62,349 nt of DNA, filler included, from Candidatus Woesearchaeota archaeon (GCA_047603125.1; 5 parts of 5 records of this genome joined end to end with filler, not necessarily neighbours in it), one strand, 5' to 3'. Numbered from the whole stretch's first letter, positions 4,819 to 59,275 are shown. Program-made: numbers and translations. Notes: a model not told the origin generated them from the sequence alone.

Positions 4819-4885
4819 TATAATGCGGCGATTTTTGAACAGTGGTTCATTTTGCAAAATTCTGATTATACACCTAGGCATTATA
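4819..4885 (+). repeat. Structured element family B, short copy
   Basis: TATAATGC-GGCG...AACAG..GTTCATTTTGC.AAATTCTGATTAT.CACC-TAG-GCATTATA; homologous to 7823-7922 and to the reverse complement of 23211-23306. Confidence 0.75.
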
Positions 4886-4922
4886 ATTTGTAATTGTTGT
4901 TAACTAAATCAGCGTGCTCTTT

Positions 4923-6302
4923 TTAATTGCGTATTCGTTTGACGCCATCAATAAAAACAAGAATACTCAGCGCTACTGCAAGCAGGAAAAAAGGTATTGC
5001 CACATAAAAAGACAGGACTGTTTCTCGAAATAAAAGCAAAATTGTTGCGCTGACAAGCAATGCTCCAAATAAAATGCCGTATGTGAGTTTGATAACCATT
5101 GTTTCGAGTTTTTCAATCATTTCTTTGATAGTTTGGTAATGAATCTGTTCAACCTGCTGTGCGTTTTTTTCTGTTTTCATATGTGTGTCCTTTTTTGGAA
5201 TTTGAATGTGTAAATCTTTTTGTACGAGCGCATCATAGAGAGATTTTGCAATATTTTGGTGGGTTTGACGTTCTGCTTGATCTAAAAATCGCGCAAATTC
5301 TCGTAAATCGTCATTTTTTGCATGTGTGAAGACGAGTTGTGTGAAAAAAGTTATGGGGGCATTCTCTGGATCAGTGTCTTGAAAAAACCGCGAAATTTGC
5401 GATTCTATCTTTGTCGCTTGAGTATGGCTTAAATGCTGACCTTGACAGAGTAACTGAAGGAGGTGGTGCGGGTGCTTGAGAAGATATGCAAGAATAACTT
5501 CTTCAATATAGGAAATGTGTGTCGTTTTTGTTACTTGGTGCACTATGGGTATCTGTTGATTTTGATGACGTTGCCAGTACATATGTGTTGGAATAATCCT
5601 GTGTTTGAAGCATTGATGGAAGATATCTGTTAAAATTGGCGTCTTTTTTTTAGACGATGAGAGTGTATAGGTGATAGCATGTCGTTTTGCTTTTTTTGTG
5701 TCAAATTTGACAGTGTCTGTGTAGAGTTTTTGAATAATTCCTACTTGGCGCGTGAGTAGTTTTGGTAGTGCAAGTAAAAAGTCGTGCACGAGTTTTGTAA
5801 GGCGAATATGGGACAGTGATTGATAAGAGTCCAATAAATGTGCAAAATCAATAAGAAATTGCGCGTGAACATCTAGTTCGTGCATCAAATCGGGTCGTGG
5901 AATGATAATATAGCGTGTTTGATTCTTGTCCCGTACTTGGTATGTTGCCGTGTACATGTCATTTTGGAGCAATGTTGCTTTTTTTCCTTTAATGCTTGTA
6001 TATCGAAATGTTGGAATAGTATCAAAGTTTTTGACTTTTGAGGGTGTTTGTTTACGAATATACTCTTCATCTTCTTGTATAAAGATTCCTTGCTCGCTCA
6101 AGTAGTATAATACAGCCTCGTACAGTGGACCCATTTGTTGGGAAACGCGAACGAGACGGTATGAGAGTGGCTTTTGTCGATTAAATAAAAGTGAGATTTT
6201 CTCTTTAAATGATGGAATTTCTACTAAACCAATTCTGGTCAACTCTTTTGCAAAACCCTCGTCGATAAGAATGTCGCTAAATTTTTGATGAATATGTTTC
6301 AT
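4923..6302 (-). CDS. Degenerate AarF/UbiB (ABC1) kinase-like membrane protein
   Basis: RLVRVSQQMGPLY and YQVRDKNQTRYIIIPRPDL resemble ABC1 N-terminal motifs; two C-terminal TM helices; catalytic motifs not recognisable. Confidence 0.5.
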   Translation of the reverse strand: MKHIHQKFSDILIDEGFAKELTRIGLVEIPSFKEKISLLFNRQKPLSYRLVRVSQQMGPLYEAVLYYLSEQGIFIQEDEEYIRKQTPSKVKNFDTIPTFRYTSIKGKKATLLQNDMYTATYQVRDKNQTRYIIIPRPDLMHELDVHAQFLIDFAHLLDSYQSLSHIRLTKLVHDFLLALPKLLTRQVGIIQKLYTDTVKFDTKKAKRHAITYTLSSSKKKTPILTDIFHQCFKHRIIPTHMYWQRHQNQQIPIVHQVTKTTHISYIEEVILAYLLKHPHHLLQLLCQGQHLSHTQATKIESQISRFFQDTDPENAPITFFTQLVFTHAKNDDLREFARFLDQAERQTHQNIAKSLYDALVQKDLHIQIPKKDTHMKTEKNAQQVEQIHYQTIKEMIEKLETMVIKLTYGILFGALLVSATILLLFRETVLSFYVAIPFFLLAVALSILVFIDGVKRIRN

Positions 6303-6412
6303 AAAACCCCCTTTTGAGTATTTTGAGGATTGCAAATTTATAAATGTTCAGTATCTAAAAAGACCACTTATGAGTAGTAACCTTTAAATATGGCTTCGTA
6401 TTTCCCTTTTTT

Positions 6413-6685
6413 ATGGAAACACACGGTGTATCGTTTATTGTATTTGTATTTGCGCTCATATCACAAGTATTATTCTTTTCTTATGCGATGAGTGATTCGG
6501 TTGATCTTATTGGTAATCAATCGCAAGAAGCAGTACAGTGCGCACTTGCAGCACAGTCCATTGAACGATGCTCGCCAGGTTTTTTTGATACGTATGAGAA
6601 TCTTGATAAAACACGTGATGAATATTTAGCTTTCTTAGAAACAACGGAGAAGTCTCTTCAGTCTGTTTTAGATTCGGTAGAGTAG
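6413..6685 (+). CDS. Small hypothetical membrane/secreted protein
   Basis: N-terminal hydrophobic helix; TTTAAATA box about 25 nt upstream. Confidence 0.6.
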   Translation: METHGVSFIVFVFALISQVLFFSYAMSDSVDLIGNQSQEAVQCALAAQSIERCSPGFFDTYENLDKTRDEYLAFLETTEKSLQSVLDSVE

Positions 6686-7158: not shown

Positions 7159-7222
7159 GCGTCTGAGATTTTATTTGGATTTATAAAAATATGGCTGCTA
7201 TATGTTCTATTTTTTTCAAAGT

Positions 7223-7822: not shown

Positions 7823-7922
7823 GTGATGCTATTACGGCGTTCTTGTGACAGTTGTCATTTTGCGAAATTTTCGCTGCATAAATCGCTCAATTTCTGATTA
7901 TGCGCCAAGGTAATAGTATCAC
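7823..7922 (+). repeat. Structured element family B copy
   Basis: 13-bp closing stem GTGATGCTATTAC/GTAATAGTATCAC (one G-U), GGCG/CGCC helix, AAG bulge, internal TGACAGTTGTCA hairpin, GCTGCA, TTCTGATT. Confidence 0.8.
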
Positions 7923-8004
7923 ATACCTGTATTTTAAGCTGTTGTGTTTGATTTCATAATCACTCATAAAAACCCTTAAAAAGGGAAACACCCTAAATCA
8001 TGTT

Positions 8005-9342
8005 ATGAGCGTTTTTCATTCCTATGACATTCGAGGACTATATCCTGAGCAAATAACACCAAGCTTTGCCTACAAGCTTGCATGTGCGTATGCTGACCAA
8101 TATTTACCAAAAACAATGGTAGTCGCCCATGACACAAGAAATGGAACAAAACAAATAACACAATCACTCGTTGATGGTTTTATAGATTCGGGTGTAAAAG
8201 TAACAACAATTGGACTTGCAACAACGCCGCAATTTTATTTTGCAATCAATCACTTTAACACAGATGGTGGTATTATCGTTACTGCTTCTCATAATCCAAA
8301 AGAATATTTAGGCTTTAAGATTTGTAAAGAAAAAGCTATTCCAATAGGCTACGATACAGGGTTAGATAAATTAGAAAAACGCATGCAAACTATGGCATTT
8401 CCACGAACACCAGAAGTAAAAGGAGAGCTGCATACAAAAAGTGTGCATAAAGAATATTTAGATTTTCTTCTTCCATTTGCAAGCTCCATTCAACCAATAA
8501 AAGCTGCGTTTGACCCAGGAAATGGGACAATTGGAGTCGTTCTTCCATACTTACTTGAGAATATTGAAATGGATTCGCAGATTATTCATGAAAAACCAAA
8601 TGGTAATTTTCCTAATCGCTCACCAAATCCGTTTGAGCCAGAAGCGCTTAAAAAAATTCAAGCATACGTGCACGAACAAAATGCTCAAATTGGCTTTGCA
8701 TATGACGGAGATGGAGATAGAGTGGTAGTTTTAGATGAGCACGGAGATGTTATTCCGCCTTCGGCAACATTTTTGATGATTTGCGGTTCACTCATTGATT
8801 CTCAAATAGCACAAGAAGAATTATTTTTACATGATTTACGAATGAGCGCATTTGTTCCAGAATGGTTAAAGTCAAAAGGATTTTCTACAGATGTGACGCG
8901 TGTTGGTCACACACACATAAAGACGGCGATGCGAAAAACAAATGCAATTTGTGCTGGTGAGCAATCGGGTCATTATTATTTTCGGGATGCTTTTTATACG
9001 GACAATGCGCTGCTTGCAACAATTCATATTTTACGCTATGTCAGTGTACGCCATCAACCAGTAAGCCAGTTAGTGGAGGAGTTAATTCGATACGAGAGTA
9101 GTGGTGAGGTGAATCTTCGTGTCAATGATACAAAAAGAGCAATTTCTGTTGTTGAGGATTCCTTTGTTCAAGCAAAAAAAGTGTTAAAATTGGATGGGAT
9201 TTCCTTGTATTTTGATGATCATTGGTTTAATGTTCGCGCATCAAATACTGAGCCATTGCTGCGTATAAATGTTGAGGCAGACGATGAGCAGATTCTCGAG
9301 AAAACGCTTCACCAGCTCAAAGATTTACTCCATGATTGTTAA
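8005..9342 (+). CDS. Phosphomannomutase/phosphoglucomutase
   Basis: YDIRG, TASHNP (phospho-Ser), DGDGDR (metal binding), GEQSGH, RASNTEP. Confidence 0.95.
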   Translation: MSVFHSYDIRGLYPEQITPSFAYKLACAYADQYLPKTMVVAHDTRNGTKQITQSLVDGFIDSGVKVTTIGLATTPQFYFAINHFNTDGGIIVTASHNPKEYLGFKICKEKAIPIGYDTGLDKLEKRMQTMAFPRTPEVKGELHTKSVHKEYLDFLLPFASSIQPIKAAFDPGNGTIGVVLPYLLENIEMDSQIIHEKPNGNFPNRSPNPFEPEALKKIQAYVHEQNAQIGFAYDGDGDRVVVLDEHGDVIPPSATFLMICGSLIDSQIAQEELFLHDLRMSAFVPEWLKSKGFSTDVTRVGHTHIKTAMRKTNAICAGEQSGHYYFRDAFYTDNALLATIHILRYVSVRHQPVSQLVEELIRYESSGEVNLRVNDTKRAISVVEDSFVQAKKVLKLDGISLYFDDHWFNVRASNTEPLLRINVEADDEQILEKTLHQLKDLLHDC

Positions 9343-12263: not shown

Positions 12264-12267
12264 TGTT

Positions 12268-12420
12268 TTACTCTGGGATTTGAGTATCAGATAAATCAGT
12301 GGTCTAACGACAGTTGTCTTTTTTGAAAAATCGGAGCTGCATTTTTTCGGATTCTCATCCTCAATTTCAAAAGAGGCTTTTAAACAATTGTCCTGGTTTT
12401 AGATTTAACACCAAGAAGTA
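12268..12420 (+). repeat. Structured element family B, hybrid/degenerate copy
   Basis: Has the GACAGTTGTC hairpin of 7823-type copies, GCTGCA, the TTTTCGGATT.TCATCCTCAA.TT..AAAGAGG.TTT.AAACAAT module shared with 59077-59275, and a CACCAAG foot. Confidence 0.6.
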
Positions 12421-16760: not shown

Positions 16761-18584
16761 ATGCACGATATTGTCATAGGAAGGGATGAAGCGGATCGGA
16801 AAAAGTATGCAAATCGCGGTACTATTCTTGTAGGAAAGCATTATGTTCAGATGGGACAAACAACATCACTTTCAAACAATATTTATCTGGATATCGCGCG
16901 TGCACATGCAATGTTTGTTTGCGGAAAAAGAGGTGGGGGAAAGTGTCTGACGGGAGATACTTTAATAACGCTTGGAGACTCAACTCAAAAGACAATAGAA
17001 CAGTTATTTAATGAATATACGAGTGATGGGATTGCAGTTTCAAAAGATTATTATAAATTATCTCAAAAAATCACAGTCTTGTCATTTAATATTTCTCAGC
17101 AAAAAATCGAAAAAAAATCTGTTACACATATGTTTCGCAGAAAAGTAAAAGAAAAATTAGTCAAATGGACTTATATAATAAATGAAAAACCGATTACTTT
17201 AATTACGACTAAGGATCATAAAATTCTCACTATTCTAAACGATTTCAAGCAGAGTTTGAGATTTAATTTCGAATGGGATTCGTATCTTTCTCAAAAAAAT
17301 TTACATTACTTTGTAAGTCATAATAAAAATAAGATTGACCCCGTCAAAATTGAATCTTATCAAGAAATTGATTTTGAGGGCTATGTTTACGATTTAACAG
17401 TACCAGAAAATCATAATTTTGTGGCAAATGATATCATTGTTCATAATTCTTACACTCTTGGCGTCATTGCAGAAGGTCTCTCTGATATTGAGCCAGAAAT
17501 TGCACAAAACCTTTCTATTATTCTCATTGACACGATGGGTATTTATTGGACAATGAAATATCCAAATAAGCAAGATGAAGATCTACTCAAACAATGGAGC
17601 TTGGAAGCTAAAGGACTTGATGTGAAAATTTATACGCCGATTGGCTATTATCAAAAATATAAGGATGAGGGAATACCAACTGATTATCCATTTTCCATTC
17701 GACCCAGCGAACTGACTTCGCTTGACTGGTGTATGACATTTAACACAGATTCTAATTCTGAACAGGGAGTTTTAATTTCTCGAGTTATTTATGAGTTGCA
17801 AGAAAAACAGCAAAATTATAGCATTCAAACAATTATTGATGCCGTTACTACCGATACGGATGCAAGTGACATAGCAAAACAGGCTGTTATTAATTTATTC
17901 AAAAATGCAAATACATGGGGGTTGTTTTCGGATACGGCAACACCCTTATCTCAGCTTGCCCAAGGAGGTCAGGTGAGCGTACTGGATGTTTCTTGTTATG
18001 CAACACAGCAAGGTGGTTGGACAATTAAGCAATTGGCTGTTGGCATTGTCGCGCAAAAACTCTTTATTCAGAGAATGCTTGAGCGAAAAGATGAGGAATT
18101 TAAAGAAGTGCACAATATTATGAATTATTTTAGTGAGGATGATTCCTCAAAAAAACAACAATATCCTCTCGTGTGGCTTGTGATTGATGAAGCTCATGAA
18201 TTTTTACCCAATGATAAAACAGTTGCGTCTTCTGATCCTCTCATTACCATTTTACGTGAAGGTCGCCAACCAGGTATTTCAGTAATTCTTGCAACACAGC
18301 AACCTGGAAAAATTCATACGGATGTTTTAACACAGTCCGATACTGTTCTTTCTCACAGAATAACTGCAAAACTTGATACGGATGCTTTGGGTACGCTCAT
18401 GCAGTCTTATATGCGTACGGGTCTTGTGCAGGCTCTTGACACTCTACCTCGCGTGAAAGGAGCGGGCATTATTTTTGATGACACGAATGAGAAAATGTTT
18501 CCTATGCGCATTCGTCCTCGCTTTACATGGCATGGTGGTTCTTCTCCTTCAGCAGTTCCAAAAACTAAGAAGTATTTTGAGTAG
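16761..18584 (+). CDS. HerA/DUF87-family ATPase containing an intein
   Basis: Walker A GKRGGGK|S split by an intein; IDTMG, LVIDEAHEF (Walker B), REGRQPG, ATQQP. Confidence 0.9.
   Translation: MHDIVIGRDEADRKKYANRGTILVGKHYVQMGQTTSLSNNIYLDIARAHAMFVCGKRGGGKCLTGDTLITLGDSTQKTIEQLFNEYTSDGIAVSKDYYKLSQKITVLSFNISQQKIEKKSVTHMFRRKVKEKLVKWTYIINEKPITLITTKDHKILTILNDFKQSLRFNFEWDSYLSQKNLHYFVSHNKNKIDPVKIESYQEIDFEGYVYDLTVPENHNFVANDIIVHNSYTLGVIAEGLSDIEPEIAQNLSIILIDTMGIYWTMKYPNKQDEDLLKQWSLEAKGLDVKIYTPIGYYQKYKDEGIPTDYPFSIRPSELTSLDWCMTFNTDSNSEQGVLISRVIYELQEKQQNYSIQTIIDAVTTDTDASDIAKQAVINLFKNANTWGLFSDTATPLSQLAQGGQVSVLDVSCYATQQGGWTIKQLAVGIVAQKLFIQRMLERKDEEFKEVHNIMNYFSEDDSSKKQQYPLVWLVIDEAHEFLPNDKTVASSDPLITILREGRQPGISVILATQQPGKIHTDVLTQSDTVLSHRITAKLDTDALGTLMQSYMRTGLVQALDTLPRVKGAGIIFDDTNEKMFPMRIRPRFTWHGGSSPSAVPKTKKYFE
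16944..17447 (+). mobile_element. Mini-intein (168 aa, no homing endonuclease)
   Basis: Begins CLTGDT, block B TTKDHKIL, block F VYDLTVPENHNFVAN, ends VHN followed by Ser+1. Confidence 0.93.
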
Positions 18585-23210: not shown

Positions 23211-23306
23211 ATAGTAATGCCTTGGCGCAAAATCAGAATTTCGCGAAGCTTTGCACCTGAGAAATTCGCAAAATGAACAGCTGTTTTGGATGCGCCGCAT
23301 TACTAT
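23211..23306 (-). repeat. Structured element family B copy
   Basis: Perfect 10-bp IR ATAGTAATGC/GCATTACTAT; the minus strand reads GGCG...AACAGCTGTTCATTTTGCGAA...GGTGCA...TTCTGATTTTGCGCC-AAG-GCATTAC. Confidence 0.8.
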
Positions 23307-23367
23307 ATACTTAAGCTATGAAATAAGTATCAATCACCTTTAAAAATAACCACATCTCACCATTTGT

Positions 23368-25434: not shown

Positions 25435-25454
25435 GAGTGATTTTGGACATGGTT

Positions 25455-25507
25455 ATTGAGAGTTTCGCGTGTATAATACTCCGGACTTTAGTCCGCAAAC
25501 TCTCAAT
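25455..25507. repeat. Inverted-repeat element with CGGACTTTAGTCCG hairpin
   Basis: 11-bp IR ATTGAGAGTTT/AAACTCTCAAT around a hairpin with the same CTTTAG centre as the adjacent family A hairpin. Confidence 0.6.
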
Positions 25508-25508
25508 T

Positions 25509-25637
25509 CAAAAGTTCGCGATTAGGTGAGAAGCGTAATACCCCGTCCCTTTAGGGCGGGGATACCTAGAAAACGTCCTAGTTTTCTGGATTTGAAAAAC
25601 TTGTGTTTTTCAATTAGCTTCGAGCAGCGAACTTTTG
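25509..25637 (+). repeat. Structured element family A, copy 2 (IS200/IS605-type hairpin CCCCGTCCCTTTAGGGCGGGG)
   Basis: 11-bp closing IR CAAAAGTTCGC/GCGAACTTTTG around three hairpins (25541-25561, about 25566-25589, about 25592-25613). Confidence 0.8.
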
Positions 25638-25657
25638 TTATTGGTAACTAATCTTTC

Positions 25658-25810
25658 GGTTTCATCCAATAATTGTTTTTTTAAAGAAGAGCACGCAGAT
25701 TTGGCTCAAGAGTCCCGCTTTGAGAATCACACAAAATTTGGCTGCAAGAATCACCAAATTTTCTGACTTTACTGCAAGGTGCTCTTCTTTATTCTTCTTT
25801 GGATGGAGTT
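25658..25810 (+). repeat. Structured element family B, long subtype
   Basis: Outer stem TTTCATCCAA/TTGGATGGAG, 12-bp stem AAAGAAGAGCAC/GTGCTCTTCTTT, GCAG/CTGC helix, AAG bulge; closely matches the reverse complements of 59077-59275 and 52970-53037. Confidence 0.85.
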
Positions 25811-25855
25811 TAATCTTTCGAAATATTTAAAAGACATGAGTGTCTACACTTGGAT

Positions 25856-32100: not shown

Positions 32101-35100
32101 GTGAGAAAAGGGGTATTCTTAGGGGTGTGTATAGTCTTATGTACAATATTTCTAGCTTATTCTTTTCATTCTCAAGATGTGCTTGATGATTTAACAATTA
32201 ATTACACGTTTACGGGCGATTCTGATTTTTTGTATGTGAATAAATCTATATTCTTTAACGCGACAATCTACAATACTACAAATCCTAGTCAAATTTTCTC
32301 AAATGACACATTTATGTGTTTTGTTAATGTGAGCAGTCCTTTCTCATTAGAAGAAATGAGTTTTACTAATAATCAATTTGTCTTACAAACTGAATTTACG
32401 CAAACAATTCCACTGGCTCAGTATTCGATTTATTGTAATTCGACGCAATTTGACAGTTTTGAAACACAGTCTCACAATTTTACCATAAGCGAACAATTCC
32501 GGCCTATTGTCCGTTCAATTGATTTAGATAATCAAAATTACAGTCTTTACTCTTGGATTGCTCAGCCGGTATATGTTGCGTTTTATAATTTAACACAGTT
32601 TAATCAAAATTCTAATCAAAGTACACTAAGTGATGCTTTGTGTACTTTGGAGTATGGGGGTGTTGAGTTTAATTTATCTGAATCATCCGTTCCAGGAATT
32701 TATGCAAATGACAGTGTTTATTTTGACACTTTTGGAAATCTTTCAGTTTTACTTTCTTGTGAAATTGACTCGCAGATGTATAATTGGAATCAAACTGTTG
32801 AGGTTTTGGAGTATAAGTCAAAGTTTGAGGCGTTTGATTTTGAATTCGGGAGTGCATTTGACTCTGCCGGAAAACCAAATTTGATATTATTTATTGACCT
32901 TTTAATATATTCGCACGACACGCCTGGAAATCATTATTATTCTGTTTTTAATACTACTTTAAATTCATTAGTTGTTAATAACGCAAGTGGTTTAAATTTA
33001 AATACTATTTTTTCAATAATATCTCCATCTAAAATTTTGAATTTTGGAAGTCAGGGTTCTGTTAGTCGTATACATTCTATTTTTAACCAGGGAGATTCAG
33101 TCATTCTTAATGAAAGTGTTTTTAGTAATGCAGCAGGATATTTTTTGACAACTTTGGACATAAATAACGAAGGAGATTTTGAGAGCATGGTTTTTTTTAG
33201 AAATACTTCTGTTCGTCAAAATTATGTTGTTGAAGAATCAGGGATCTATAGAAAATTGAATGCTACGGGCTTGACAGATGGTGCTATTTGTTATGAAGAT
33301 ATTAATAAAAATGGCTTTTTTGATTTATTATTATTTGGCAGTACGGGTGCAGGTTTAGAGACGAAAATTTATTTTAATAATGGAACACATTTTAATCAAA
33401 GTTTAGATCTTGGTTTGGGTTTTCGTCATGGCTCGTGTCATATTGGTAAATTTTTAGAAAATAATGAAATTAATTTTATGATATTGGGGGAATTTTTTAC
33501 AGGTTCTGCGTTCGTCAACCAACTCCTCCTTTTCAACTCAACAGAAAACCTGCTTAATAACCAACCAGACCTAAACGGAAGAATCCCAATCGAACCACTT
33601 TCTCACACAGACATCTTCGTTGCAGACTTAGATAATAGCGGATTAAAAGACATCCTTATTTGTGGACAAAATCAATCAGGAGACTATAAAACCTATTTTC
33701 TCAAACAAAACATGACCAACCCTGGATTTTTTTATGTCCTAGATGAATTCGATCACCCCAATGTTCATAAATGTTCAATCTCCGCCACACATCTGACAGA
33801 CTCAACAGCTTTAGAAATTGCGATTGGAGGAATTGGAGCAGAACCGCAAGACAATCAAATTAAAGTCTATAAAAACATCCCTCCAAGAGCATTACCAAAT
33901 CCACAACCACCAACGATAACAAATCTGAGTTGGAATAACCAAACAAATCAATTATACATAGAGTGGGAACCAACAGATTCGATGCATAGCTACAATCTCA
34001 AAGCCATGTATCTAAATCAAACTGTTATCATGTCTGGTTTTTACCCACTCTCCACACATCCTGCTCAAGGCTATTTAGGAAATATGCGTTATCGAACAAA
34101 TGTAACACTAAACAATATTGAGAACGGATTAGTACAAGTAGGAGTACAAACATTTGATCAAGCACTTCGAAAAAGTGAGTGGTCAATAAAAACGAATCAA
34201 TGTCAACCTCCACAAGGTTCATCTTATTGGATCATAAATGAATATTGTCTAATCTTAAATGAAACGCTTCCTGCACTAAATATAACCGTAACAGAAAATG
34301 GCTTGGTGGATTTTATTAATGATTTTTCCTCACCACAGACAAATATAACGGTTCATGGACAAATTCGCGCCAAACATCTCGATGTTCAAAACATCATTTA
34401 CAACACAACAAACACGCTGACACTAAATACCAGTGCGAGTGTAACTGCTCTCAAACCAGCAAGAATTGAAAAAAGCAATATTACAACACTCATTGCAAAA
34501 GCAAATAGTACTCTTTTTGATTCACAAGTACAACATGTGACTGTATATGATCCGTATCAAGTTAATGATACCATAGCAACCGTATTTTCATATATCAATC
34601 AATTCTCGCAACAAGTAACTGACGTCTTGCAAAATAGTACGGGTGTGTTTACAACCAATACAACTCAAACACTTCTTAGACAAACATTTACTAATAGCTC
34701 AGTAAATCCCAACAATATCACAATTACGTTCACCAAACCCCCGTTATATTACAACAGCACACAAAGTATTCAACCAGAGCCTAATAAAACGATTATTCTC
34801 ACAAGAAATCCTCTGCCCGATATAGGGGTATTTCAATCTAATGTAAATCAAACACTACTGCAACACGATGGAGCACTTGATTTACAAACCTTTTCACAGT
34901 TTCCTAACTTTACAGTTGAAATACCTGATTTGGCAAGAATAAACTGGTTGCATCCTATCAATGTTTCTTTTTTAAATCTCAATGATTCCATACAAATAGA
35001 AGAGAATCTCATATCAGTCAATCATTCTCAATTAAACGCAAGTGCAAATATAACTTTCTTTAATTTAAGTTATCTTACAAAACCTCTTTTATTAAAAAAC

Positions 35101-38100
35101 GGAGAAATTTGTCAAGATTGTCTGAATCAAACATATCAAGACAATACGTTTTCAAGTATTGTTTCTGGTTTTAGTACATATCAAACACAGCAAAACGCAC
35201 AACTCAGTTTTGAAACAACAAGCCTAGCAGTTGTCAATCAAACATTTGATATTCGTGTTCGTTATGTACAATCACAAAACACGAATAACCCCGTAGAAAA
35301 TGCAACCTGCCTGTTTGAAACGAATGACAAAAGTATCCCCCTTTCATTAAACGGTTCTTTTTATACCAATCAAACAATATTTAATACAACGTCTGAATCC
35401 ATTTTTGCAAACATCTCCTGTAGCGCGTTAAATTTTGAGCCACTTAACTTAACACAAGAAATTCAAGTTATTGATAATGGATTATTTTTTGTTCGAACGG
35501 ATGATGTTTATGAAGGGGTAGAAAGATCAAGTGCAGGGGTGTTTGGAAAATACTTGTATTATCAAGGAATCTTAAATAGTATTTTGAAAGAATATATTAA
35601 TAAAACTCTTATTTCAAGCAGTTTTGTTTCAAATATTGAGAATAAACCATTCTCCCTCACAGACCTCAACAACGACGGTCAAATGCAAAAAATTAATCTC
35701 GGCCAGCAAATAGTCAACACACCTTCGGACTGGACGACTTTAACAAATGGTGCATTTATTACCGCCGACTTAGATAATGATGGTGATATTGACATTATCT
35801 ACTGTGGAAACCAACGATTTGGAATCTTAGAAAACAGATTTGCCCAAAACCAACATGACACACTTGAATTTATCAACCACCCATATCCAGAATTTGGTTT
35901 AAGCCGATGTTCATTAGCTTACACGGTTTTTAATAATACAAAGTATGTAGCTGCACAAGGAAGAAACAAATCAGATGATAACAAATTGTTCTTATTTAAA
36001 ATAGAAGAAAATCTCAATCTAACTAACCTTAGCACTACAGCAAATTTAGGTGATGGTGAAATCTATTTTACAAATATTAACAATGATGATAATATAGAAC
36101 TTATAACGACGGGTACGCGTACATCTACCTCAGGCTTTGAAACAAATGTGTTTACAATCATAAATAACAGTCTTCACAATTCGACATTTACTATTCCAGA
36201 ACATTATATACAAAGCTCAATTATATCAGTCAAACTTCAAAATGAAACTTATCCGTTAATTATTATTTCTGGAACAAATCTAGGAGAAAGTGCAGATCCT
36301 CCTCACATCAACGCATACCAATACAACGGCACAGACTTGGAAAAAAGAAACGACCTTATACAAGATGTACCACCATTTTCACGAGGGTCGGCATTTTTTG
36401 CAGACATCACTGGAAATAATCTTCCAGAACTGTTCATAACAGGAAGTGGGACTGCACAACTCTTTACACTCTTTGATACAGAGCATCAATTAGTTGGAGT
36501 ACAACCATCAGCACCACAAAATTTGAGTGCAAGTTATAATCCAACAACACAAGAACTCTTTATAGAGTGGAGTGAAGTACCAAATGCAACCTATCAATTA
36601 CAAGTGGGGGAAACATCAAGACCACATCGATTTGTATCAAGTGCAACAGGCTCGTCAACAAATCCGACACAGAATCAACAAGGTAATATGTTCTCACAAA
36701 CAAATATTACGTTACAAAATATGCCAAATACTTGTTATCAAATACGCGTTCAAGCAATTTCACCATCGTATATTCAAAGTGATTGGCAGATACTTAAAGA
36801 CTACAACAAGAGAAGTGGTTTTGATTCTGCAGGCAAATATGATATTAATTGTGATGGGGATTATAGAGATACAACAGCAGGTGGCCCACCCTCGCCATTA
36901 GATAGAGCAACAGGCGCTGCAATCACCCCTGGGGAACCAAGTGGTGAAGGTACCGTACAACCCCCACCAGAATCAGGATCAGAAGAAGAATCACAAGAAC
37001 AACCACAACCCCAAGAACCCCAACAAACACAAAGCCAAGGGTCATTTATTACCAAACCTTTCGAGCAATTTTTTGAAATAGAATACAGAAATGAGAGAAC
37101 ATATGTCATTGAAACTATTCAAAAAATTGAGCGAACCAAAAAAACAGATATAATAATTCGAAAAGAGTTTCCTACAACTACACTACAAAGTGCATCCCTT
37201 TTACAATCACGAACACCAATTATCATCCAACGAGAAAACCCCATTATTGACTTTTTCATAGGTGATCTAGACTACTTAGAACAATATCGAATGCAATATT
37301 CATTACCAGGCACTATTGAAGAGCATCAAATTAGAGCAGTGCAAACAGTTATGCTCGCAGATCAGCAATATACGCAAGAACAAATAGAACTTTTAGAACA
37401 AGAACAAGAAGAGATAGCAAACAGAGCAGTTAACACAAGTATCACAGAAACACAAGTTGGAGACAATACCGTTTTCACCATCCGTGTGGACTTGCAAGAT
37501 GATGTAGACACCGTACGAAATGTTGAAATTGAGCAATACATTCCTAAATGTTTAATTGAAGAAGTCAACGAATTAATACTACGAACAGGTATTGATGAAA
37601 ACTATATCAATAATGTACAAATTAAAGAAGCAGACCCGATAATTGTTTGGACATTTGAGGAACTCAGAGCAGGCGAAGAGTTTACATTCACATTGCCGGT
37701 TTTACGAGATGAAGATTGTCTTGACCAAACACGAATCCGAACATTAGCACAGGATTTTATTGGTGCGCACTATGAAATTAATCAAAAAAACCTTCTCTTG
37801 TCACTCTTATTGACGGCGGGAATCTTTTTACTCTTTTTACTTCTCTTTACGAGTATTACAAGGGCAAATAGATATGATGCCAATTATTTAATCACGCAAC
37901 AAAAGCGACATGGATTTACAGATGAGCAAATTTTTCATAATTTACAAGAAAACCGCTTTATTGAGATTACTAAAGAGCAGATACAAAAACACAAAGCCAC
38001 ATTTACGCACCACATAACCACTCGAGGAGTGGAAATTTTTATTTTCTTAACACTTGTTATCTTAAACACACTTGATTTTGCGGGTATGATTCCGGGGTAT

Positions 38101-40659
38101 TTGGATTGGGTCAAAAAAATTATCAGCTGGCTTTTACTTCTTCTTCTTTTATACAAAGTTGATTTGACAAAGGTGTTGTTTAATTATACTAAGCAATGGC
38201 TGAATGTGACATTGCTTGGGGCGATGTTTTTGATGCATTTGCAAGGTCTTATTCAATTTGCACAGGCTTTGCGCTTTGATGCGCGCACAGCCTTTGTTTT
38301 TGACTTGTATCAATGGATATTAGCAAATGAATATGTTTTTTCAGTCATCCTGTTTAGTATAGGGACGGGCACATTACTTTTGATATCGCTGTACATTGGC
38401 TTTTTTATGCCAATTCGCGAAGGTTCGTTATATTTTACTCTCTCACGGCATCCGCACGCACATACAGTCTTGCAAAAAATCAAGCGAAGTGTTATTACCT
38501 TTATACTGTTGATGATTTTTTTCTTTACCATATTTAATCGGATGATGGAGTGGCTTGCAATTGCTATTGATGCGGCGGTTTTCATGCTTGCATTGATTAT
38601 ACTGCTTGCAGCAATTTTACAAACGAAATTTCACGATACAAAAACGCGAACACATCATCATATTCACAATATTTTTGCCAATAATTCAATATTGCTTATT
38701 CTCTTTGCATGGTATATTGGTTCGTTTTTCATCCCACTCCTTGAACCAATGTATGCGCAGATGGCACTTGGTGCACTCATTGCACTACTCGTGTTTGTCG
38801 TTTTGATAACCAGTATTTATTCCTACAAACATCACTTTCAAGAACTCAAGCATGTATCGACTGCAGTTGATACCATTTATGTAAAATTTGTCAAACTCTT
38901 TGAATATCCACATACGCTCTTTTTAGGAATTTCAGGATTACTTGTATTACAACATATTGTAGAAATAGGGTTGTATTTAATTCCAAATATTACTGGACAG
39001 GCAGGCTCAATTTACTCTCATGTACATAAAAATACACTCTTTTCTTTGTTTGGTGAGACAAGTATTGTTAGTGAGCATTTGTTTACACTCTCATTAAATG
39101 AGGCGTACTTGTATTCGTTTTTATATTTGACAAGCTTTTTGGGTTTTATTTTACTCTTTTCTATTCCAGCAATTATTTGGACTGTGTATTTTGTTCATAG
39201 ACAAGTCCATTTTACAAATGTGAGTTTGAGTGAGTATTTAACCAAAAAAACAACGAGTGCAAAAGTGTTACGTGCTGTTGCTGTTGTAGGAATTCCTTTT
39301 ATTGTAACTGCGCTTGTCAGTCAAATATTATATATACGCCAAGTACAAACACTCTCATTAGTTGGCATTGAAATTCTTGCGCAAAAGTCACCGGTTCAGC
39401 CAACAACAATTCTGTTTTTACTCATTGGTATGCTCGTGTACATACCCATTGCCTATGCACTGCGAACAAAGCCTGCTCTGACATATAGTACCATCTGGTT
39501 TGGAGTGGCAACGCTCATGTATATGTACATGATTCCCTATCTTGATTCTACAATGCGGTACTTGTTGCAGACAGTCTCAGCCCCGACAAATTTAGAATCA
39601 GTACTCTTGCTATTTGTCTTTGTCTTTTTTAGTATTGATGTATTGATTATTTATGGTCTGGGGCTTTTGATACTGATTTTGTTTACGCTTCCTAAAACTA
39701 TTAAGCACGCGATTATTCGAGTAATTTCCAAACGAGGCCCATTACATCGAATGAATGCGCTCTCAATGCATATGAGCCATTTGGATTATTTTGACTATGC
39801 ACGATTCCATTTTGTAGGGAATCTCAAACACCATCTTAAACACTATGTACAAGCAGAGCAAAAAAGGGGGCATCATTTAGAAACGATTATTTTACAATTA
39901 AAATTGCATCAATATCCAGACTCGCTCATACATCATGCGATTGAAGATATATTAGAAGACCCTAAATCTAAAAAACAACTCACCCATATGCGACCGGAAC
40001 ACATTGATGCGGATAAAGTAAAACATCTTGTTCCCCTCATTCGAAAAGATCTCAAGCATAAAGAAACATTGCTTGAAATTTTTGAAGAGTATGAGGATGA
40101 ATACTCATACCCTGAAATAAAACTTGCAATGCGCTTGGCAAAAAACACGATTCGGGGTAATATACACTCCTCACAGGTCAAATATGTCGAGCTTCAAGAA
40201 ATAAAAGAAATTATTTTGTATTTACAACAAAAAGAGGATGTGGAGCAGTTTGCTCTTAAAGGCTATGATCCCTCATTTATGCAATTGCGTGCTAATGCAA
40301 AAGACGCAAGCCATAATCCACAAAAAGCACAATTGCTTACTACTATTTTAGAAGAATGGGTTATTAAGCAACAACAAATTCATACAGTCATACAAATTTT
40401 AAAAGATTACAGTGCAAACGAGATTTTGTATGCTTGTGATTACATACTCACCCATAAAGATCAGCGGGAAAAATGGAAGCAAGATGTGCAAAAAATTCAA
40501 CAAATGATAGATTGGATTGAACATGCAAAGCAGCAAGGTCTGACAGCCGATCATATTCGAGTGGAATTGCAAAATGCAGGCTGGTCAAAACAACAAATTG
40601 AGTTAGCGTTTCAAAAAATACATGCACACCATATTTTCACACATACCAAAGATGATTAA
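32101..40659 (+). CDS. Giant (2852 aa) surface protein: two FG-GAP/FN3-like modules, Ig-like stalk, multi-pass membrane domain, cytoplasmic helical repeats
   Basis: Signal peptide, many NxS/T sequons, DINKNGFFDLL, DLDNSGLKDIL, DLDNDGDIDII, DITGNNLPEL; more than 10 TM helices in the C-terminal third. Confidence 0.85.
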   Translation: MRKGVFLGVCIVLCTIFLAYSFHSQDVLDDLTINYTFTGDSDFLYVNKSIFFNATIYNTTNPSQIFSNDTFMCFVNVSSPFSLEEMSFTNNQFVLQTEFTQTIPLAQYSIYCNSTQFDSFETQSHNFTISEQFRPIVRSIDLDNQNYSLYSWIAQPVYVAFYNLTQFNQNSNQSTLSDALCTLEYGGVEFNLSESSVPGIYANDSVYFDTFGNLSVLLSCEIDSQMYNWNQTVEVLEYKSKFEAFDFEFGSAFDSAGKPNLILFIDLLIYSHDTPGNHYYSVFNTTLNSLVVNNASGLNLNTIFSIISPSKILNFGSQGSVSRIHSIFNQGDSVILNESVFSNAAGYFLTTLDINNEGDFESMVFFRNTSVRQNYVVEESGIYRKLNATGLTDGAICYEDINKNGFFDLLLFGSTGAGLETKIYFNNGTHFNQSLDLGLGFRHGSCHIGKFLENNEINFMILGEFFTGSAFVNQLLLFNSTENLLNNQPDLNGRIPIEPLSHTDIFVADLDNSGLKDILICGQNQSGDYKTYFLKQNMTNPGFFYVLDEFDHPNVHKCSISATHLTDSTALEIAIGGIGAEPQDNQIKVYKNIPPRALPNPQPPTITNLSWNNQTNQLYIEWEPTDSMHSYNLKAMYLNQTVIMSGFYPLSTHPAQGYLGNMRYRTNVTLNNIENGLVQVGVQTFDQALRKSEWSIKTNQCQPPQGSSYWIINEYCLILNETLPALNITVTENGLVDFINDFSSPQTNITVHGQIRAKHLDVQNIIYNTTNTLTLNTSASVTALKPARIEKSNITTLIAKANSTLFDSQVQHVTVYDPYQVNDTIATVFSYINQFSQQVTDVLQNSTGVFTTNTTQTLLRQTFTNSSVNPNNITITFTKPPLYYNSTQSIQPEPNKTIILTRNPLPDIGVFQSNVNQTLLQHDGALDLQTFSQFPNFTVEIPDLARINWLHPINVSFLNLNDSIQIEENLISVNHSQLNASANITFFNLSYLTKPLLLKNGEICQDCLNQTYQDNTFSSIVSGFSTYQTQQNAQLSFETTSLAVVNQTFDIRVRYVQSQNTNNPVENATCLFETNDKSIPLSLNGSFYTNQTIFNTTSESIFANISCSALNFEPLNLTQEIQVIDNGLFFVRTDDVYEGVERSSAGVFGKYLYYQGILNSILKEYINKTLISSSFVSNIENKPFSLTDLNNDGQMQKINLGQQIVNTPSDWTTLTNGAFITADLDNDGDIDIIYCGNQRFGILENRFAQNQHDTLEFINHPYPEFGLSRCSLAYTVFNNTKYVAAQGRNKSDDNKLFLFKIEENLNLTNLSTTANLGDGEIYFTNINNDDNIELITTGTRTSTSGFETNVFTIINNSLHNSTFTIPEHYIQSSIISVKLQNETYPLIIISGTNLGESADPPHINAYQYNGTDLEKRNDLIQDVPPFSRGSAFFADITGNNLPELFITGSGTAQLFTLFDTEHQLVGVQPSAPQNLSASYNPTTQELFIEWSEVPNATYQLQVGETSRPHRFVSSATGSSTNPTQNQQGNMFSQTNITLQNMPNTCYQIRVQAISPSYIQSDWQILKDYNKRSGFDSAGKYDINCDGDYRDTTAGGPPSPLDRATGAAITPGEPSGEGTVQPPPESGSEEESQEQPQPQEPQQTQSQGSFITKPFEQFFEIEYRNERTYVIETIQKIERTKKTDIIIRKEFPTTTLQSASLLQSRTPIIIQRENPIIDFFIGDLDYLEQYRMQYSLPGTIEEHQIRAVQTVMLADQQYTQEQIELLEQEQEEIANRAVNTSITETQVGDNTVFTIRVDLQDDVDTVRNVEIEQYIPKCLIEEVNELILRTGIDENYINNVQIKEADPIIVWTFEELRAGEEFTFTLPVLRDEDCLDQTRIRTLAQDFIGAHYEINQKNLLLSLLLTAGIFLLFLLLFTSITRANRYDANYLITQQKRHGFTDEQIFHNLQENRFIEITKEQIQKHKATFTHHITTRGVEIFIFLTLVILNTLDFAGMIPGYLDWVKKIISWLLLLLLLYKVDLTKVLFNYTKQWLNVTLLGAMFLMHLQGLIQFAQALRFDARTAFVFDLYQWILANEYVFSVILFSIGTGTLLLISLYIGFFMPIREGSLYFTLSRHPHAHTVLQKIKRSVITFILLMIFFFTIFNRMMEWLAIAIDAAVFMLALIILLAAILQTKFHDTKTRTHHHIHNIFANNSILLILFAWYIGSFFIPLLEPMYAQMALGALIALLVFVVLITSIYSYKHHFQELKHVSTAVDTIYVKFVKLFEYPHTLFLGISGLLVLQHIVEIGLYLIPNITGQAGSIYSHVHKNTLFSLFGETSIVSEHLFTLSLNEAYLYSFLYLTSFLGFILLFSIPAIIWTVYFVHRQVHFTNVSLSEYLTKKTTSAKVLRAVAVVGIPFIVTALVSQILYIRQVQTLSLVGIEILAQKSPVQPTTILFLLIGMLVYIPIAYALRTKPALTYSTIWFGVATLMYMYMIPYLDSTMRYLLQTVSAPTNLESVLLLFVFVFFSIDVLIIYGLGLLILILFTLPKTIKHAIIRVISKRGPLHRMNALSMHMSHLDYFDYARFHFVGNLKHHLKHYVQAEQKRGHHLETIILQLKLHQYPDSLIHHAIEDILEDPKSKKQLTHMRPEHIDADKVKHLVPLIRKDLKHKETLLEIFEEYEDEYSYPEIKLAMRLAKNTIRGNIHSSQVKYVELQEIKEIILYLQQKEDVEQFALKGYDPSFMQLRANAKDASHNPQKAQLLTTILEEWVIKQQQIHTVIQILKDYSANEILYACDYILTHKDQREKWKQDVQKIQQMIDWIEHAKQQGLTADHIRVELQNAGWSKQQIELAFQKIHAHHIFTHTKDD
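37072..37681 (+). repeat. Direct repeat copy B (~610 bp)
   Basis: Near-identical to 30376-30985, in the same reading frame. Confidence 0.92.
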
Positions 40660-52924: not shown

Positions 52925-52969
52925 GGAGTGAATGGGGAATGTTCTCTTTAAAAAAGTATTGAAAAATGG

Positions 52970-53037
52970 GGCTCTATCCAAAAAATAAGAAAATAGAGCA
53001 CCTTGCAGCAAAGTCAGAAAATTTGGTGATTGTCTGC
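52970..53037 (-). repeat. Structured element family B, long subtype, cut by contig end
   Basis: ATCCAAAAAATAAGAAAA..GAGCACCTTGCAG.AAAGTCAGAAAATTTGGTGATT matches 59077 onward and the reverse complement of 25750-25810. Confidence 0.85.
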
Positions 53038-56413: not shown

Positions 56414-56594
56414 ACTCCCCTTTAAAAGAATTGTGTTACAACTAAAAAGTTAGATACATATTGCATACCAAGTCTCGATGACACGAACAGGAAGATTTAT
56501 AAACTGCAATAGCCGGAAATAAAATTAGACTGGAAAATTAAGTTACAAGCATATCACTTCGATATCACGTGACAAAACAGGGGCTGACTGCAAA

Positions 56595-57857
56595 GTGAAA
56601 GTTTTAATGTTTGGTTGGGAATTACCACCCCTATACGCAGGAGGTATAGGCATGGTATGCTACGATTTAATCAAAGAGCTTACAGCCCAAAATGTCCACG
56701 TCACCTATCTAATGCCATTTGGCCCAAAAGATTTTCCAACTGATACAAACGCACAAATTGTCGTTGCAGAGCAAGCGTTTCCTGAGCTCGAACTTTCTGA
56801 AGTTGACATTCGAAAAGTTCATACACTCTTTAATGCCTATCAGTCTCCACAAGAATACGAACAAGCATACAAAGAACAGCTCAAACGTGAAAAAGAACGG
56901 GGCGTTCGAAAAAATCTATACGGACCAAATTTATTTGCAGAAGTCGATTTATTTGCAAAACGCGCATACGAACTCATTGATGATGTTGAATTTGATGTTA
57001 TACACGCACATGACTGGATGACGTTTCCAGCTGCAATTGGCGTAAAACAAAAAACAGGAAAACCACTCATCGTCCACGTCCACAACACTATTTTTGATCG
57101 CTACTTAGGAAATGCATCTCCGCATGAAAAAAACATAGAATGCTCAGGTCTTGAACACGCCGATGTCATCGTTGTTGTTTCTAACTACATTAAAAATACA
57201 CTTGTTGACAAATATCACGTCGACCCAAATAAGATTCAAGTAATTCACAATGCTCCAAACTCGCTACTACGAAATGTCAAGAAAAAGACAGAATATAAGC
57301 TTGATATCGGCGATGATAAAATGGTTCTCTTTACAGGGCGTATGACCATGCAAAAAGGTCCTGAGTATTTTGTACACTGTGCAAAAAAAGTTCTTGAACA
57401 TCGAGATGACGTCACATTTGTTATGGCAGGCAGCGGAGATCTTTTTGAAAACACAATTAACCTTGCATCACACTTAGGAATTTCTCATAAATTTTTATTT
57501 ACAGGATTTTATACTATGGATCAGGCAAAATCCCTGTATCAGCGAGCAGATTGTTATATTATGCCATCCGTCTCCGAGCCATTTGGCATCGTTCCGCTTG
57601 AAGCTATGGATGAGGGTGCTCCGACTATGATTACGCGTACATCCGGTTGTAGCGAAGTTATACATCACGCACTTAAAATTGATTTTTGGGATATTCATCA
57701 AATGGCAAATAAAGTCTTAGCAGTCTTAGAATATCCACAGCTCAAACAAGAATTAAAACTCAATGGGCAAGCACAAGTTAGTTCAATGAATTGGAGCAAG
57801 CCTGCAACACTTTGTAAGACATTATATCATTCACTTTCAAACCAACGACAGGTTTGA
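56595..57857 (+). CDS. GT4 glycosyltransferase (glycogen synthase-like)
   Basis: MFGWELPP..GGIG, HAHDWMT, GRMTMQKG, PSVSEPFGIVPLEAM; adjacent to a GH57 gene. Confidence 0.9.
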   Translation: MKVLMFGWELPPLYAGGIGMVCYDLIKELTAQNVHVTYLMPFGPKDFPTDTNAQIVVAEQAFPELELSEVDIRKVHTLFNAYQSPQEYEQAYKEQLKREKERGVRKNLYGPNLFAEVDLFAKRAYELIDDVEFDVIHAHDWMTFPAAIGVKQKTGKPLIVHVHNTIFDRYLGNASPHEKNIECSGLEHADVIVVVSNYIKNTLVDKYHVDPNKIQVIHNAPNSLLRNVKKKTEYKLDIGDDKMVLFTGRMTMQKGPEYFVHCAKKVLEHRDDVTFVMAGSGDLFENTINLASHLGISHKFLFTGFYTMDQAKSLYQRADCYIMPSVSEPFGIVPLEAMDEGAPTMITRTSGCSEVIHHALKIDFWDIHQMANKVLAVLEYPQLKQELKLNGQAQVSSMNWSKPATLCKTLYHSLSNQRQV

Positions 57858-57886
57858 ATACCACCAGAAGAAAAAAGAGCGATACC

Positions 57887-59095
57887 ATGAGTAGCATTTG
57901 CTTATATGTTCAAATACACCAACCATTTCGGCTTCGACCATTCACCGTATTTGACATAGGGAAAAACGAATCCTATTTTGATCTAAAAACAAATAAAGAC
58001 ATTTTACAAAAAGTTGCAAAACACTCTTACATCCCTACGCTTGAGCGAATTGAGAAACTCATTGCAAAAACAAATCTTGCCATCACTTTTAGCATCTCAG
58101 GTCTTGCTCTTGAACAACTCCAAGAATACGAACCAACAGTTATTGAAAAACTAAAAAAACTCGCAACATCATCCCAAGTTTCTTTCTTAAGTGAAACATA
58201 TCACCATAATTTAGCAAGTGTCTACTCACATGAAGAATTTATAGAACAGATACAGCTTCACACAAAAGCATTAAAGTACTATCTTGGAATTGATAAGCCA
58301 ACGATTTTTCGAAACACGGAACTTATTTACAGTGATGAAATTGCACAAATTGTAGAATCACTTGGCTACAAAGCAATTCTTGCAGAAGGTGTTCCCGAAA
58401 TGCTTGACTGGAGAAGCCCAAATCACCTCTATACTGCAAAGGACACAACACTCAAAGTCTTTTTTAAAAATTTTAAACTCAGCGACGATATCGCATTTCG
58501 ATTCTCCGATAAAAAATGGGCAGACTGGCCCCTCACTCCTGAAAAATTTGCAAAATGGACGCAACAATCACAAGCACAACTTATTAACCTATTTATTGAC
58601 TTTGAAACATTTGGCGAGCATCAACGCGAAGATTCAGGCATTTTTACATTTTTAGAGGAACTCCCCGATGCAATTAATGACGCGGGAGGAACATTCATGA
58701 CTTTACCCACTGCATGCAGTACATTCGAATCGAAAGGAGAAATTAGCGTCCCGACATTTACCTCATGGGCAGATCAAAAAAGAGACTTAAGCGCGTGGAC
58801 GCAAAATACAATGCAACAATCTGCAATTCGGCGCATCTTTGACTTACGCGAGCAAGTGCTCAAAACTAAAGACAAAACACTTATTGACGATTGGAGAAAA
58901 CTTACAACCTCCGATCATTTTTATTACATGTCGACAAAAATTGCAAGCGACGGAGCAGTCCATTCGTACTTTAGTCCATATGACAGCCCGTATGATGCAT
59001 TCATCGCTTTTATGAATGTAGTAAGCGACTTAGAAAAACGCGTATTACAAACACAGCAACAAGAAAAAGCACAGGCAACTCCATCCAAAAAATAA
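57887..59095 (+). CDS. GH57 alpha-amylase/glucan-modifying enzyme
   Basis: HQP, SETYHH, FRNTELIY, LSDDIAFRF, DFETFGEHQ, SWAD, SDHFYYM. Confidence 0.92.
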   Translation: MSSICLYVQIHQPFRLRPFTVFDIGKNESYFDLKTNKDILQKVAKHSYIPTLERIEKLIAKTNLAITFSISGLALEQLQEYEPTVIEKLKKLATSSQVSFLSETYHHNLASVYSHEEFIEQIQLHTKALKYYLGIDKPTIFRNTELIYSDEIAQIVESLGYKAILAEGVPEMLDWRSPNHLYTAKDTTLKVFFKNFKLSDDIAFRFSDKKWADWPLTPEKFAKWTQQSQAQLINLFIDFETFGEHQREDSGIFTFLEELPDAINDAGGTFMTLPTACSTFESKGEISVPTFTSWADQKRDLSAWTQNTMQQSAIRRIFDLREQVLKTKDKTLIDDWRKLTTSDHFYYMSTKIASDGAVHSYFSPYDSPYDAFIAFMNVVSDLEKRVLQTQQQEKAQATPSKK

Positions 59096-59275
59096 GAAAA
59101 AGGAGCACCTTGCAGAAAAATCAAAAAATTTGGTGATTGTTTGAAACCCTCTTTCAAACTTGAGGATGAAAATCCGAAAAGTTGCAACCAATTTTTTATA
59201 AGATTCTCAAAGCGAGACTCTTGAGCCAAATCTGCGTGCTCTTTTCTGTGACAAAAACAAGTTTTGGATGAAACC
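59077..59275 (-). repeat. Structured element family B, long subtype with ~45-nt extra module
   Basis: Matches 25658-25810 in reverse complement plus an insert containing the GTTTGAAA-ccctc-TTTCAAAC hairpin; overlaps the GH57 stop codon. Confidence 0.85.

Follow-up and report, generated by a model that had tools for sequence, protein, structure and literature searches.

The window analysed here is a stretch of 62,349 nt, filler included, in which five contigs of the 1.1-Mb genome of a Candidatus Woesearchaeota archaeon (GCA_047603125.1, hereafter G000) are joined; its genes are archaeal. Seven copies of a structured intergenic repeat lie between positions 4819 and 59275. A preliminary description, made from the sequence alone, had placed them on three contigs and in one family, and both the coordinates and the family assignment proved right (contigs C49, C50 and C61). 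The explanation that we favour, at slightly under an even chance, is that the repeat is a portable cis-acting signal in single-stranded DNA (ssDNA), amplified by DDE transposons and kept in the manner of repetitive extragenic palindromes (REPs). Coordinates below are window positions, and the strand given is the one on which a conserved bulge reads AAG (the AAG strand); the strand that folds is probably its complement (the CTT strand).

The core of the repeat is ~95 bp long, and one strand of it can adopt a branched fold, a three-way junction with an 11-bp stem (P3) and a shorter hairpin (P2). On the AAG strand, the order is a closing stem P0 (9-13 bp, ending in C), a helix P1 (4 bp, starting with G), a 5-nt junction, the P2 hairpin, a 6-7-nt junction ending in C, and the 11-bp P3 with a loop of TGCA, 1-3 nt and AATC. 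An 8-nt junction starting with TG (TGAYT) then leads to P1′, which ends in C, to AAG, and to G plus P0′. The 3-nt bulge sits between invariant C-G and G-C pairs, and the sequence of P0 is nearly free. Read on the CTT strand, the bulge is CTT and the loop is GATT-NN-TGCA. Optional domains of 44-55 nt, with two or three hairpins, differ from genome to genome; they are inserted either in the P2 loop or between TGCA and AATC.

The preliminary description had given all seven copies one layout. This layout is full in the copies at 7823, 23211 and 25658, which score 63-72 bits against our covariance model, and in that at 59077, but it is incomplete in those at 4819, 12268 and 52970. [quoted passage not shown] Its core comprises P0 (25686-25694), P1 (25695-25698), a P3 loop, TGCAAGAATC (25743-25752), P1′ (25772-25775), AAG (25776-25778) and P0′ (25779-25787). 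On the plus strand, a 9-bp target duplication, TAATCTTTC, flanks the MITE on the left (25649-25657) and on the right (25811-25819), and a TATA-like TTTAAA (25826-25831, +) lies 15 nt past the right TIR, upstream of the gene at 25850. TIRs and target duplications lie outside the closing stem and, as in this example, they had been overlooked in the first reading.

Two other group A MITEs are on the minus strand. The one at 59077-59275 carries a 44-nt two-hairpin module in its P3 loop (~59139-59182) and is a partial match to the covariance model (22.7 bits); P1 is at 59232-59235, the bulge reads CTT at 59109-59111 on the plus strand, and the TIRs are at 59077-59086 and 59266-59275. The one at 52969-53037 is truncated by the contig end and has only its 3′ half, with the CTT bulge at 53002-53004 on the plus strand, the right TIR at 52969-52979 and a TATA-like TTTAAA at 52947-52952.

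The full core at 7823-7922 (+, 71.9 bits) has a 13-bp P0, P1 at 7836-7839, a P3 loop, TGCATAAATC, at 7875-7884, P1′ at 7903-7906 and AAG at 7907-7909; its termini are uncertain, and a TATA-like TTAAAA lies at 7976, ahead of the gene at 8005. A full group B core at 23211-23306 (−, 63 bits) has P1 at 23293-23296 and its CTT bulge at 23221-23223 on the plus strand, and a TATA-like TTTAAA lies at 23339, ahead of the gene for Met-tRNA ligase. P3 is deleted in the group B copy at 4819-4906 (+, 36.8 bits), in which P1 (4827-4830) has a C.A mismatch, P2 is at 4837-4848, P1′ at 4871-4874, a TAG bulge at 4875-4877 and the right TIR end AACTA at 4906. The copy at 12268-12420 (+, 11.3 bits, E 1.9) is decayed and without a closing stem; recognizable parts are P2 (12309-12318), TGCA (12338), an optional two-hairpin module (from ~12342) and CACC-AAG (12409-12415).

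Fold and folding strand

To measure covariation, we used 100 distinct copies from outside this genome, in an alignment (A2) that was fitted to the covariance model, includes its training sequences and was drawn mostly from the top scores. In these copies, 92.9% of 2788 cells are paired, and 28/28 pairs change on both sides (918 cells). The covariation score is 0.804, compared with 0.203 for shuffled and 0.10-0.15 for slid alignments. All four Watson-Crick types are present in the central P3 columns, the top mutual-information signals are the proposed pairs, and mutual information gave no pseudoknot signal. The unpaired TGCA, AATC, TG and CAAGG are 98-100% conserved, as is the AAG bulge itself; P1 is 98% paired, and helix lengths are fixed while stem sequence is free. 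A structure-blind MAFFT alignment of 41 copies left P0 97%, P1 99% and P3 88% paired.

The preliminary description had argued for selection on a single-stranded fold from closing stems that differ in sequence and stay paired, and had proposed a covariance model with a covariation analysis as the check. All 28 stem pairs covary, and because they change on both sides, selection acts on the fold and not on the stem sequence. The same description had recognized no known family. Rfam 15 gave only a tRNA in the window, and none of nine outside loci reached a gathering threshold (best E 1.6).

A different strand from the one first proposed emerges as the folding one. Mismatches had been said to resolve as G-U only in the AAG-3′ orientation, and one G.T in the stem of the 7823 copy does fit, but overall the outside copies have 38 G.T and 39 A.C against 2551 Watson-Crick pairs in ~2780 cells. 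The G000 copies, which were not picked by model score, have 13 G.T and 19 A.C in P0 plus P1; by contrast, the tRNA stems of G000 show a wobble excess in a rough parse (35 versus 8). Scarce wobble would also fit a fold required on both strands, such as a cruciform. GNA triloops cap P2 in 52/100 copies on the CTT strand and in 0/100 on the AAG strand, and tandem G.A occurs in 59/100 and 0/100, respectively. Two P3 columns alternate A-T with T.C/C.T on the AAG strand, which is tandem G.A on the CTT strand. GNA mini-hairpins are far more stable as DNA and are found at the G4, ssiA and N4 ssDNA signals, according to the available parts of PMC13037366. We therefore regard the CTT strand, the complement of the first proposal, as very likely the folding strand. 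GNA triloops and tandem G.A on this strand point to ssDNA, and the core probably folds as single-stranded or cruciform DNA.

A structured RNA of the CTT strand (a noncoding RNA, ribozyme or transposase antisense), transcribed by read-through or from promoters nearby and multiplied on the DNA of MITEs and insertion sequences (ISs), would share this polarity. A-rich junctions, tandem G.A, a GNRA tetraloop in 35/37 modules and optional peripheral domains at fixed loops would all suit it, and the CTT strand has the lower RNA folding energy in 30/41 sequences. We nonetheless consider such an RNA unlikely: neither strand has the wobble excess of the tRNA control, the triloop caps are a DNA-type feature, both orientations occur within operon-sized gaps, and a common promoter or terminator was not seen by eye.

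Carriage, distribution and insertion sites

G000 has 126 loci detected by BLAST, and the covariance model (R2) gives 110 matches in its 1.1 Mb; this genome-wide count, which the preliminary description had called for, is far above chance. We sorted 107 copies into nine groups by closing stem. Both TIRs were found in 54 of these 107, including 19/19 in group C, and MITEs with termini of at least three classes, which have 3-, 8- and 9/10-bp target duplications, enclose the fold. Group A (GGCTTCATCC-type TIRs) has 9-bp duplications in 11 of the 18 copies with both ends, group C (TAGT-type) 3/4-bp duplications in 19/19, with an identical sibling for 14, group F (GACAG-type) 8/9-bp duplications in 4/4, and group E (GGGTTTGTG-type) 9-10-bp duplications in 2/3. 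Every TIR-plus-duplication MITE group found in G000 carries the core. The TIRs and duplications show that DDE cut-and-paste transposition spread the core within G000. They are typical of this mechanism, and the movement via an ssDNA or RNA intermediate that had been considered for the G000 copies is not borne out. A close sibling at 93% identity exists for 0/8 copies without P2/P3 and for 36/102 intact ones; because of this difference, and because all TIR-plus-duplication groups carry the core, an intact core appears to favour multiplication or retention.

The core is also part of an autonomous IS. Two of three DDE_Tnp_1 matches in the family have it ~250 nt downstream of the matched domain, and in genomes G007 and G005 it lies inside an ISH3-like IS of ~1.27 kb. 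The G007 element has CAGT-type TIRs, a 5-bp duplication with one mismatch (4/5) and a 390-aa ISH3-like open reading frame (ORF) that runs through the core; the best NCBIfam match of its transposase is ISH3 (E 5e-31; 107.9 bits, under the cut-off of 225). In 17 of the 27 closest among 64 transposase homologues, the terminal peptide decodes to the core loop (in three frames), versus 0/37 distant ones, the core at these 3′ ends being inferred from protein tails and not from DNA. The model matched 0/26 more distant ISH3 loci. Since the core is read in three frames, the constraint is on the nucleic acid; it persisted as the proteins of the clade diverged to 55% identity.

Autonomous ISs with the same termini as the MITEs were found for the CAGT class (G007 and G005), and a TAGT-type end occurs at two contig ends. 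None was found for the GGCT, GGGT and GACAG classes in assemblies that leave the interiors of multicopy ISs unassembled, and DDE_Tnp_4 and IS1595 were each absent from 10/10 genomes. Contig ends of G000 (C1, C2, C11, C21, C34, C39, C58, C63 and their partners) contain collapsed copies of at least five multicopy IS families. Three internally deleted relics of ISH3-like elements lie at C58:1-271, C48:3505-3730 and C42:4907-5050 in G000; the core and the right TIR survive in the C48 and C42 relics, and in the former a two-hairpin module is inserted in P2.

Among the contigs of four DNA runs, no joint skipped a copy, and orthologous gaps in relatives lack the element but have diverged beyond showing its ends. 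Loose ends, both starting with TG, occur at window positions 7950 (255 nt in all four runs) and 14341 (four runs, long in three), which suggests that the population is polymorphic for an IS. At 25453-25642 in the window lies a distinct non-autonomous repeat, IS200/IS605-like and ~190 bp long. It has 18 left ends in the genome, 17 of them after TTATT, and often lies in the right arm of core-bearing MITEs.

Within the family of G000, 7/10 genomes carry 10-110 copies and 3/10 carry none (94, 90 and 70% complete). G008 has 50 copies, whereas G003, from the same genus, has none at 94% completeness. Seven genomes reached via individual loci hold 9-109 copies each. Samples of 150 genomes of the order and 150 of the phylum, searched with strict filters and with only 27 candidates scored per genome, yielded 5 and 8 further carriers, all from the same order. 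Two carriers, of 1.2-1.3 Mb, were deposited as Methanosarcinales, one of which is placed in the same family as G000. A pattern scan of GTDB gave at least 107 matches; among the matches listed, 21 pass the structure filter, 5 more are model-positive, and all 26 accepted ones are archaeal by title, while the other 81, scored by pattern and filter without the model, failed the structure filter. The layout is present in 18/19 metagenome matches and in 0/3 pattern matches from viral contigs. As far as sampled, the distribution is confined to one order and is patchy in an all-or-none way among close relatives.

Copies in G000 occupy a characteristic position. A TATA-like word starts 12-18 nt beyond one TIR in 39 of the 51 both-ended copies, versus 11% of random intergenic positions, in every duplication class and, with few exceptions, on the flank that faces a gene start. 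Of ~8 readable right ends of core-free ISH3-like elements, 4 lie 14-16 nt from a TATA box (two by script, two by eye). Since these core-free elements target alike, the promoter spacing belongs to transposition in these hosts and not to the core, and targeting of promoters by the core is ruled out. Such elements from other families in the order (L292, L303, L304 and L307) lie 14-16 nt upstream of a TATA box, which suggests that promoter-guided target choice is general in this order. By eye, the insertions of one collapsed IS of G000 appear to lie close to gene starts, ~20 nt downstream of TATA boxes, and those of another, with GTACG ends, ~14 nt upstream of such boxes.

The preliminary description had also held that the copies are not simple terminators or leaders. 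Orientation is unbiased among 43 outside copies (contexts 15/11/10/7), which rules out either role. A sense bias in five copies of one family disappeared on adding copies. There is no replichore-like bias (same/different 29/24 in G000, 16/11 and 13/9 elsewhere), and no transposase is encoded among the 92 genes adjoining outside copies. The fibrillarin and NOG1 genes overlap in the window and in G009, and are separated by a 177-nt gap with a core in G008. Copies also occupy the grpE-dnaK gap of one genome and the dnaK-dnaJ gap of another (L153 and L270); by eye, the orthologous dnaJ gaps of four relatives are without a core.

Two other genes of the window are a 607-aa P-loop ATPase with an intein splicing domain (16761-18584) and a 2852-aa ORF (32101-40659) that follows an FG-GAP repeat protein and matches nothing in Pfam.

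Most copies sampled in three other genomes are without detectable termini. A scan for TIRs plus duplications scored above threshold in 0/11 copies of the G008 set, which includes four metagenome loci placed there by assumption, in 0/27 of G160 and in 3/28 of G161, compared with 1/88 controls. The TATA peak is missing from the same sets (3/20, 4/27 and 6/28, versus 52/96 in G000). Several such copies are less than 15 nt from a gene on one side and fit into gaps of 8+44, 14+9 and 6+25 nt. Although nearest neighbours among them are only 56-94% identical, pairing is nearly complete, and the copies combine P0, P2 and P3 types in reassorted ways. At L334 (G008:C192:389-578), two cores stand back to back with overlapping closing stems, resembling a REPIN doublet. 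The label MITE alone leaves part of the family uncovered.

The control-level scores, the missing TATA peak, the tight gaps and the reassorted stem types would be expected if the core were itself a non-autonomous element, moved as ssDNA by a nickase or recombinase with a cutting site close to the CCTTG bulge, either entering an existing short palindrome or creating one; its landing sites would then include IS ends and MITEs. Its CTTG resembles the nick sites of IS91 and rolling-circle elements. We find this quite improbable. The solo copies sampled include no near-identical pair (0.94 at most between nearest neighbours), a search of G000 for an empty palindrome of a family's P0 found none, and the core has co-evolved vertically with one ISH3 clade. 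Y1/RAYT proteins (PF01797), moreover, have a match in 0/5 other carriers, and G000 has only a 67-aa frame beside an IS200-like repeat; Y2 transposase was found in 0/10 genomes by a search whose positive control was also silent.

Other candidate partners fared no differently. Reverse transcriptases occur in 2/5 carriers; one of 546 aa with a C-terminal extension lies ~630 nt from a core in G161, with one gene between (L250, G161:C21:1-2284), probably by chance given 72 copies. Tyrosine recombinases occur in 8/10 genomes, in a distribution unlike that of the carriers, and a crude HUH motif scan of the G000 proteome was empty.

Interpretation and related systems

Transposon interiors are usually free to decay. 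That one fold is kept across unrelated termini, and after their loss, therefore implies a protein partner. Our explanation of the repeat as a portable ssDNA signal supposes a trans factor, present only in some Woesearchaeales lineages, that would read the folded core strand. The core's carriers are an ISH3-like IS clade, in which it occupies the right end, and MITEs with termini of several classes; in G000, DDE transposition spread it to positions just upstream of promoters. Elements with an intact core would multiply or persist better, and the fold would outlive the termini and stay as a REP-like repeat. Its role may be that of a protein-loading site on exposed ssDNA, for example a single-strand initiation (ssi, priming) or repair-loading signal. 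More specifically, such a priming signal might help a strand to become double-stranded after its transfer or excision, which is a guess from analogy and not a likely one. A broader formulation, which we put forward tentatively and hold to be less likely than not, is a new structure-defined class of DPANN elements: a branched ssDNA (or two-polarity) fold, moved or recombined by a lineage-restricted enzyme regardless of stem sequence, captured by transposon families as an accessory, and populating genomes alone without termini.

Several observations weigh against the portable signal. In the ISH3 transposase gene, the AAG strand is the sense one; it also bears the conserved purine bulge, with a polarity like that of bulge-helix-bulge (BHB) motifs. 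The GNRA tetraloop of the optional modules (35/37 copies) suits RNA equally, and elaborate optional domains are typical of RNAs. The A2 alignment, being fitted to the model and made mostly of top-scoring copies, is biased toward perfect pairing, and the deletion comparison is based on 8 copies only. A core-free IS5 element in a carrier genome (L288) means that the core is unnecessary for transposition in general. The scan for termini overlooked TIRs visible by eye in three G161 copies, and some G161 copies have decayed 30-nt arms in common; part of the termini-free class is therefore old MITEs. Finally, no partner protein followed the carriers in the searches for Y1, Y2, reverse transcriptase and tyrosine recombinase.

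The AAG strand could instead form an RNA with a relaxed site of the bulge-helix-loop (BHL) type for the tRNA splicing endonuclease EndA, with transcripts cut or the interior freed as a circular, intron-like RNA. The exact 4-bp helix has a 3-nt bulge on its 3′ side and adjoins the closing stem, which matches the hBH/BHL arrangement in the available parts of PMC5829648, the EndA gene is present, and the AAG strand is sense to the transposase. Two more pairs are possible past a 3-nt 5′ bulge in 52/100 copies, and the second h′ pair covaries slightly (63 versus 53 shuffled), but the first does not (78 versus 79). The interior would require U.C/C.U tandems and pyrimidine triloops on this strand, the bulge is 98-100% AAG whereas those of G000 tRNA introns vary (by eye), a spliced-out DNA form was not found in G000, and EndA is general in archaea while the element is patchy. 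We therefore think a site of this kind very improbable. The tRNA introns of G000 are themselves of some note: by eye, five intron-containing tRNAs (on C23, C32, C39, C41 and C57) have short or weak inner helices, and the Trp and Tyr introns contain box C/D-like words.

Ordinary MITEs and their relics, with palindromes kept paired by template-switch correction and gene conversion and no selection on the fold, would account for the TIRs, duplications, autonomous ISs and decayed or deleted copies, and for the near absence of G-T if one arm is copied directly from the other, but we find this reading very improbable, given unpaired parts conserved at 98-100%, fixed helix lengths with free stems, tandem G.A mismatches retained and not corrected, the same core between unrelated termini and in termini-free copies, and its presence in all TIR-plus-duplication MITE groups of G000. 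K-turn, hammerhead, twister-sister, retron and CRESS-origin structures were considered and dropped on topology or for a missing consensus.

The vehicles of the core are of known kinds. Like the prokaryotic MITEs Correia/NEMIS, RUP, Nezha and Chunjie, as summarized in the available parts of PMC3184786, the elements are short, non-coding and intergenic, have TIRs and duplications and are moved in trans; unlike them, they share one internal fold across unrelated TIRs and duplication lengths, which covaries independently and outlasts detectable termini. A Woesearchaea genome with 105 MITEs/Mb is recorded in PMC11602168, whose MITE catalogue may list these sequences as MITEs. The CAGT-type TIR, 5-bp duplication and DDE transposase are those of ISH3-family ISs, but only a subclade (at least 55% identity) has the core at its 3′ end.

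Among structured repeats, REPs and REPINs also form many intergenic palindromic copies, in either orientation and patchy among close relatives. The present element is longer and branched, with free stems, no GTAG foot, free outer P0 columns and RAYT in 0/5 carriers. Bacillus bcr1 is a mobile repeat whose branched fold is maintained by compensatory changes, and stem-loops at Borrelia IS ends outlast IS decay (both from PMC3184786); these differ in sequence and architecture, are RNA-level, confined to one genus and not shared across IS families. The ssi signals and ssDNA promoters (phage G4 origin, ssiA, N4) likewise have GNA mini-hairpins in a protein-read folded DNA strand, as described in the accessible text of PMC13037366, but they are single-copy on replicons, and the likeness here is by analogy. 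Archaeal BHB and BHL motifs resemble the AAG strand in setting a 4-bp helix with its 3-nt bulge next to a closing stem; here, the second bulge and inner helix are weak, the bulge sequence is fixed and the other strand is better supported. The HUH ends of IS200/IS605 or IS91 are set apart by the target duplications in G000 and by Y1 in 0/5 carriers, and integron attC sites by the dispersed, randomly oriented copies and by integrase matches that do not track carriers. The literature searched, mostly outside subscription papers and including the available parts of PMC12558985, PMC11602168, PMC13037366, PMC3184786 and PMC5829648, gave no description of this element; as far as searched, the shared fold is undescribed.

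If the core is a true ssDNA signal, it would be a rare family of natural DNA structures with deep covariation, comparable to attC or REP. Its all-or-none presence among close relatives offers a direct route to the partner, via comparison of gene content. In addition, several IS types insert ~14 nt upstream of TATA boxes in archaea, and this makes it possible to test whether promoters guide target choice there.

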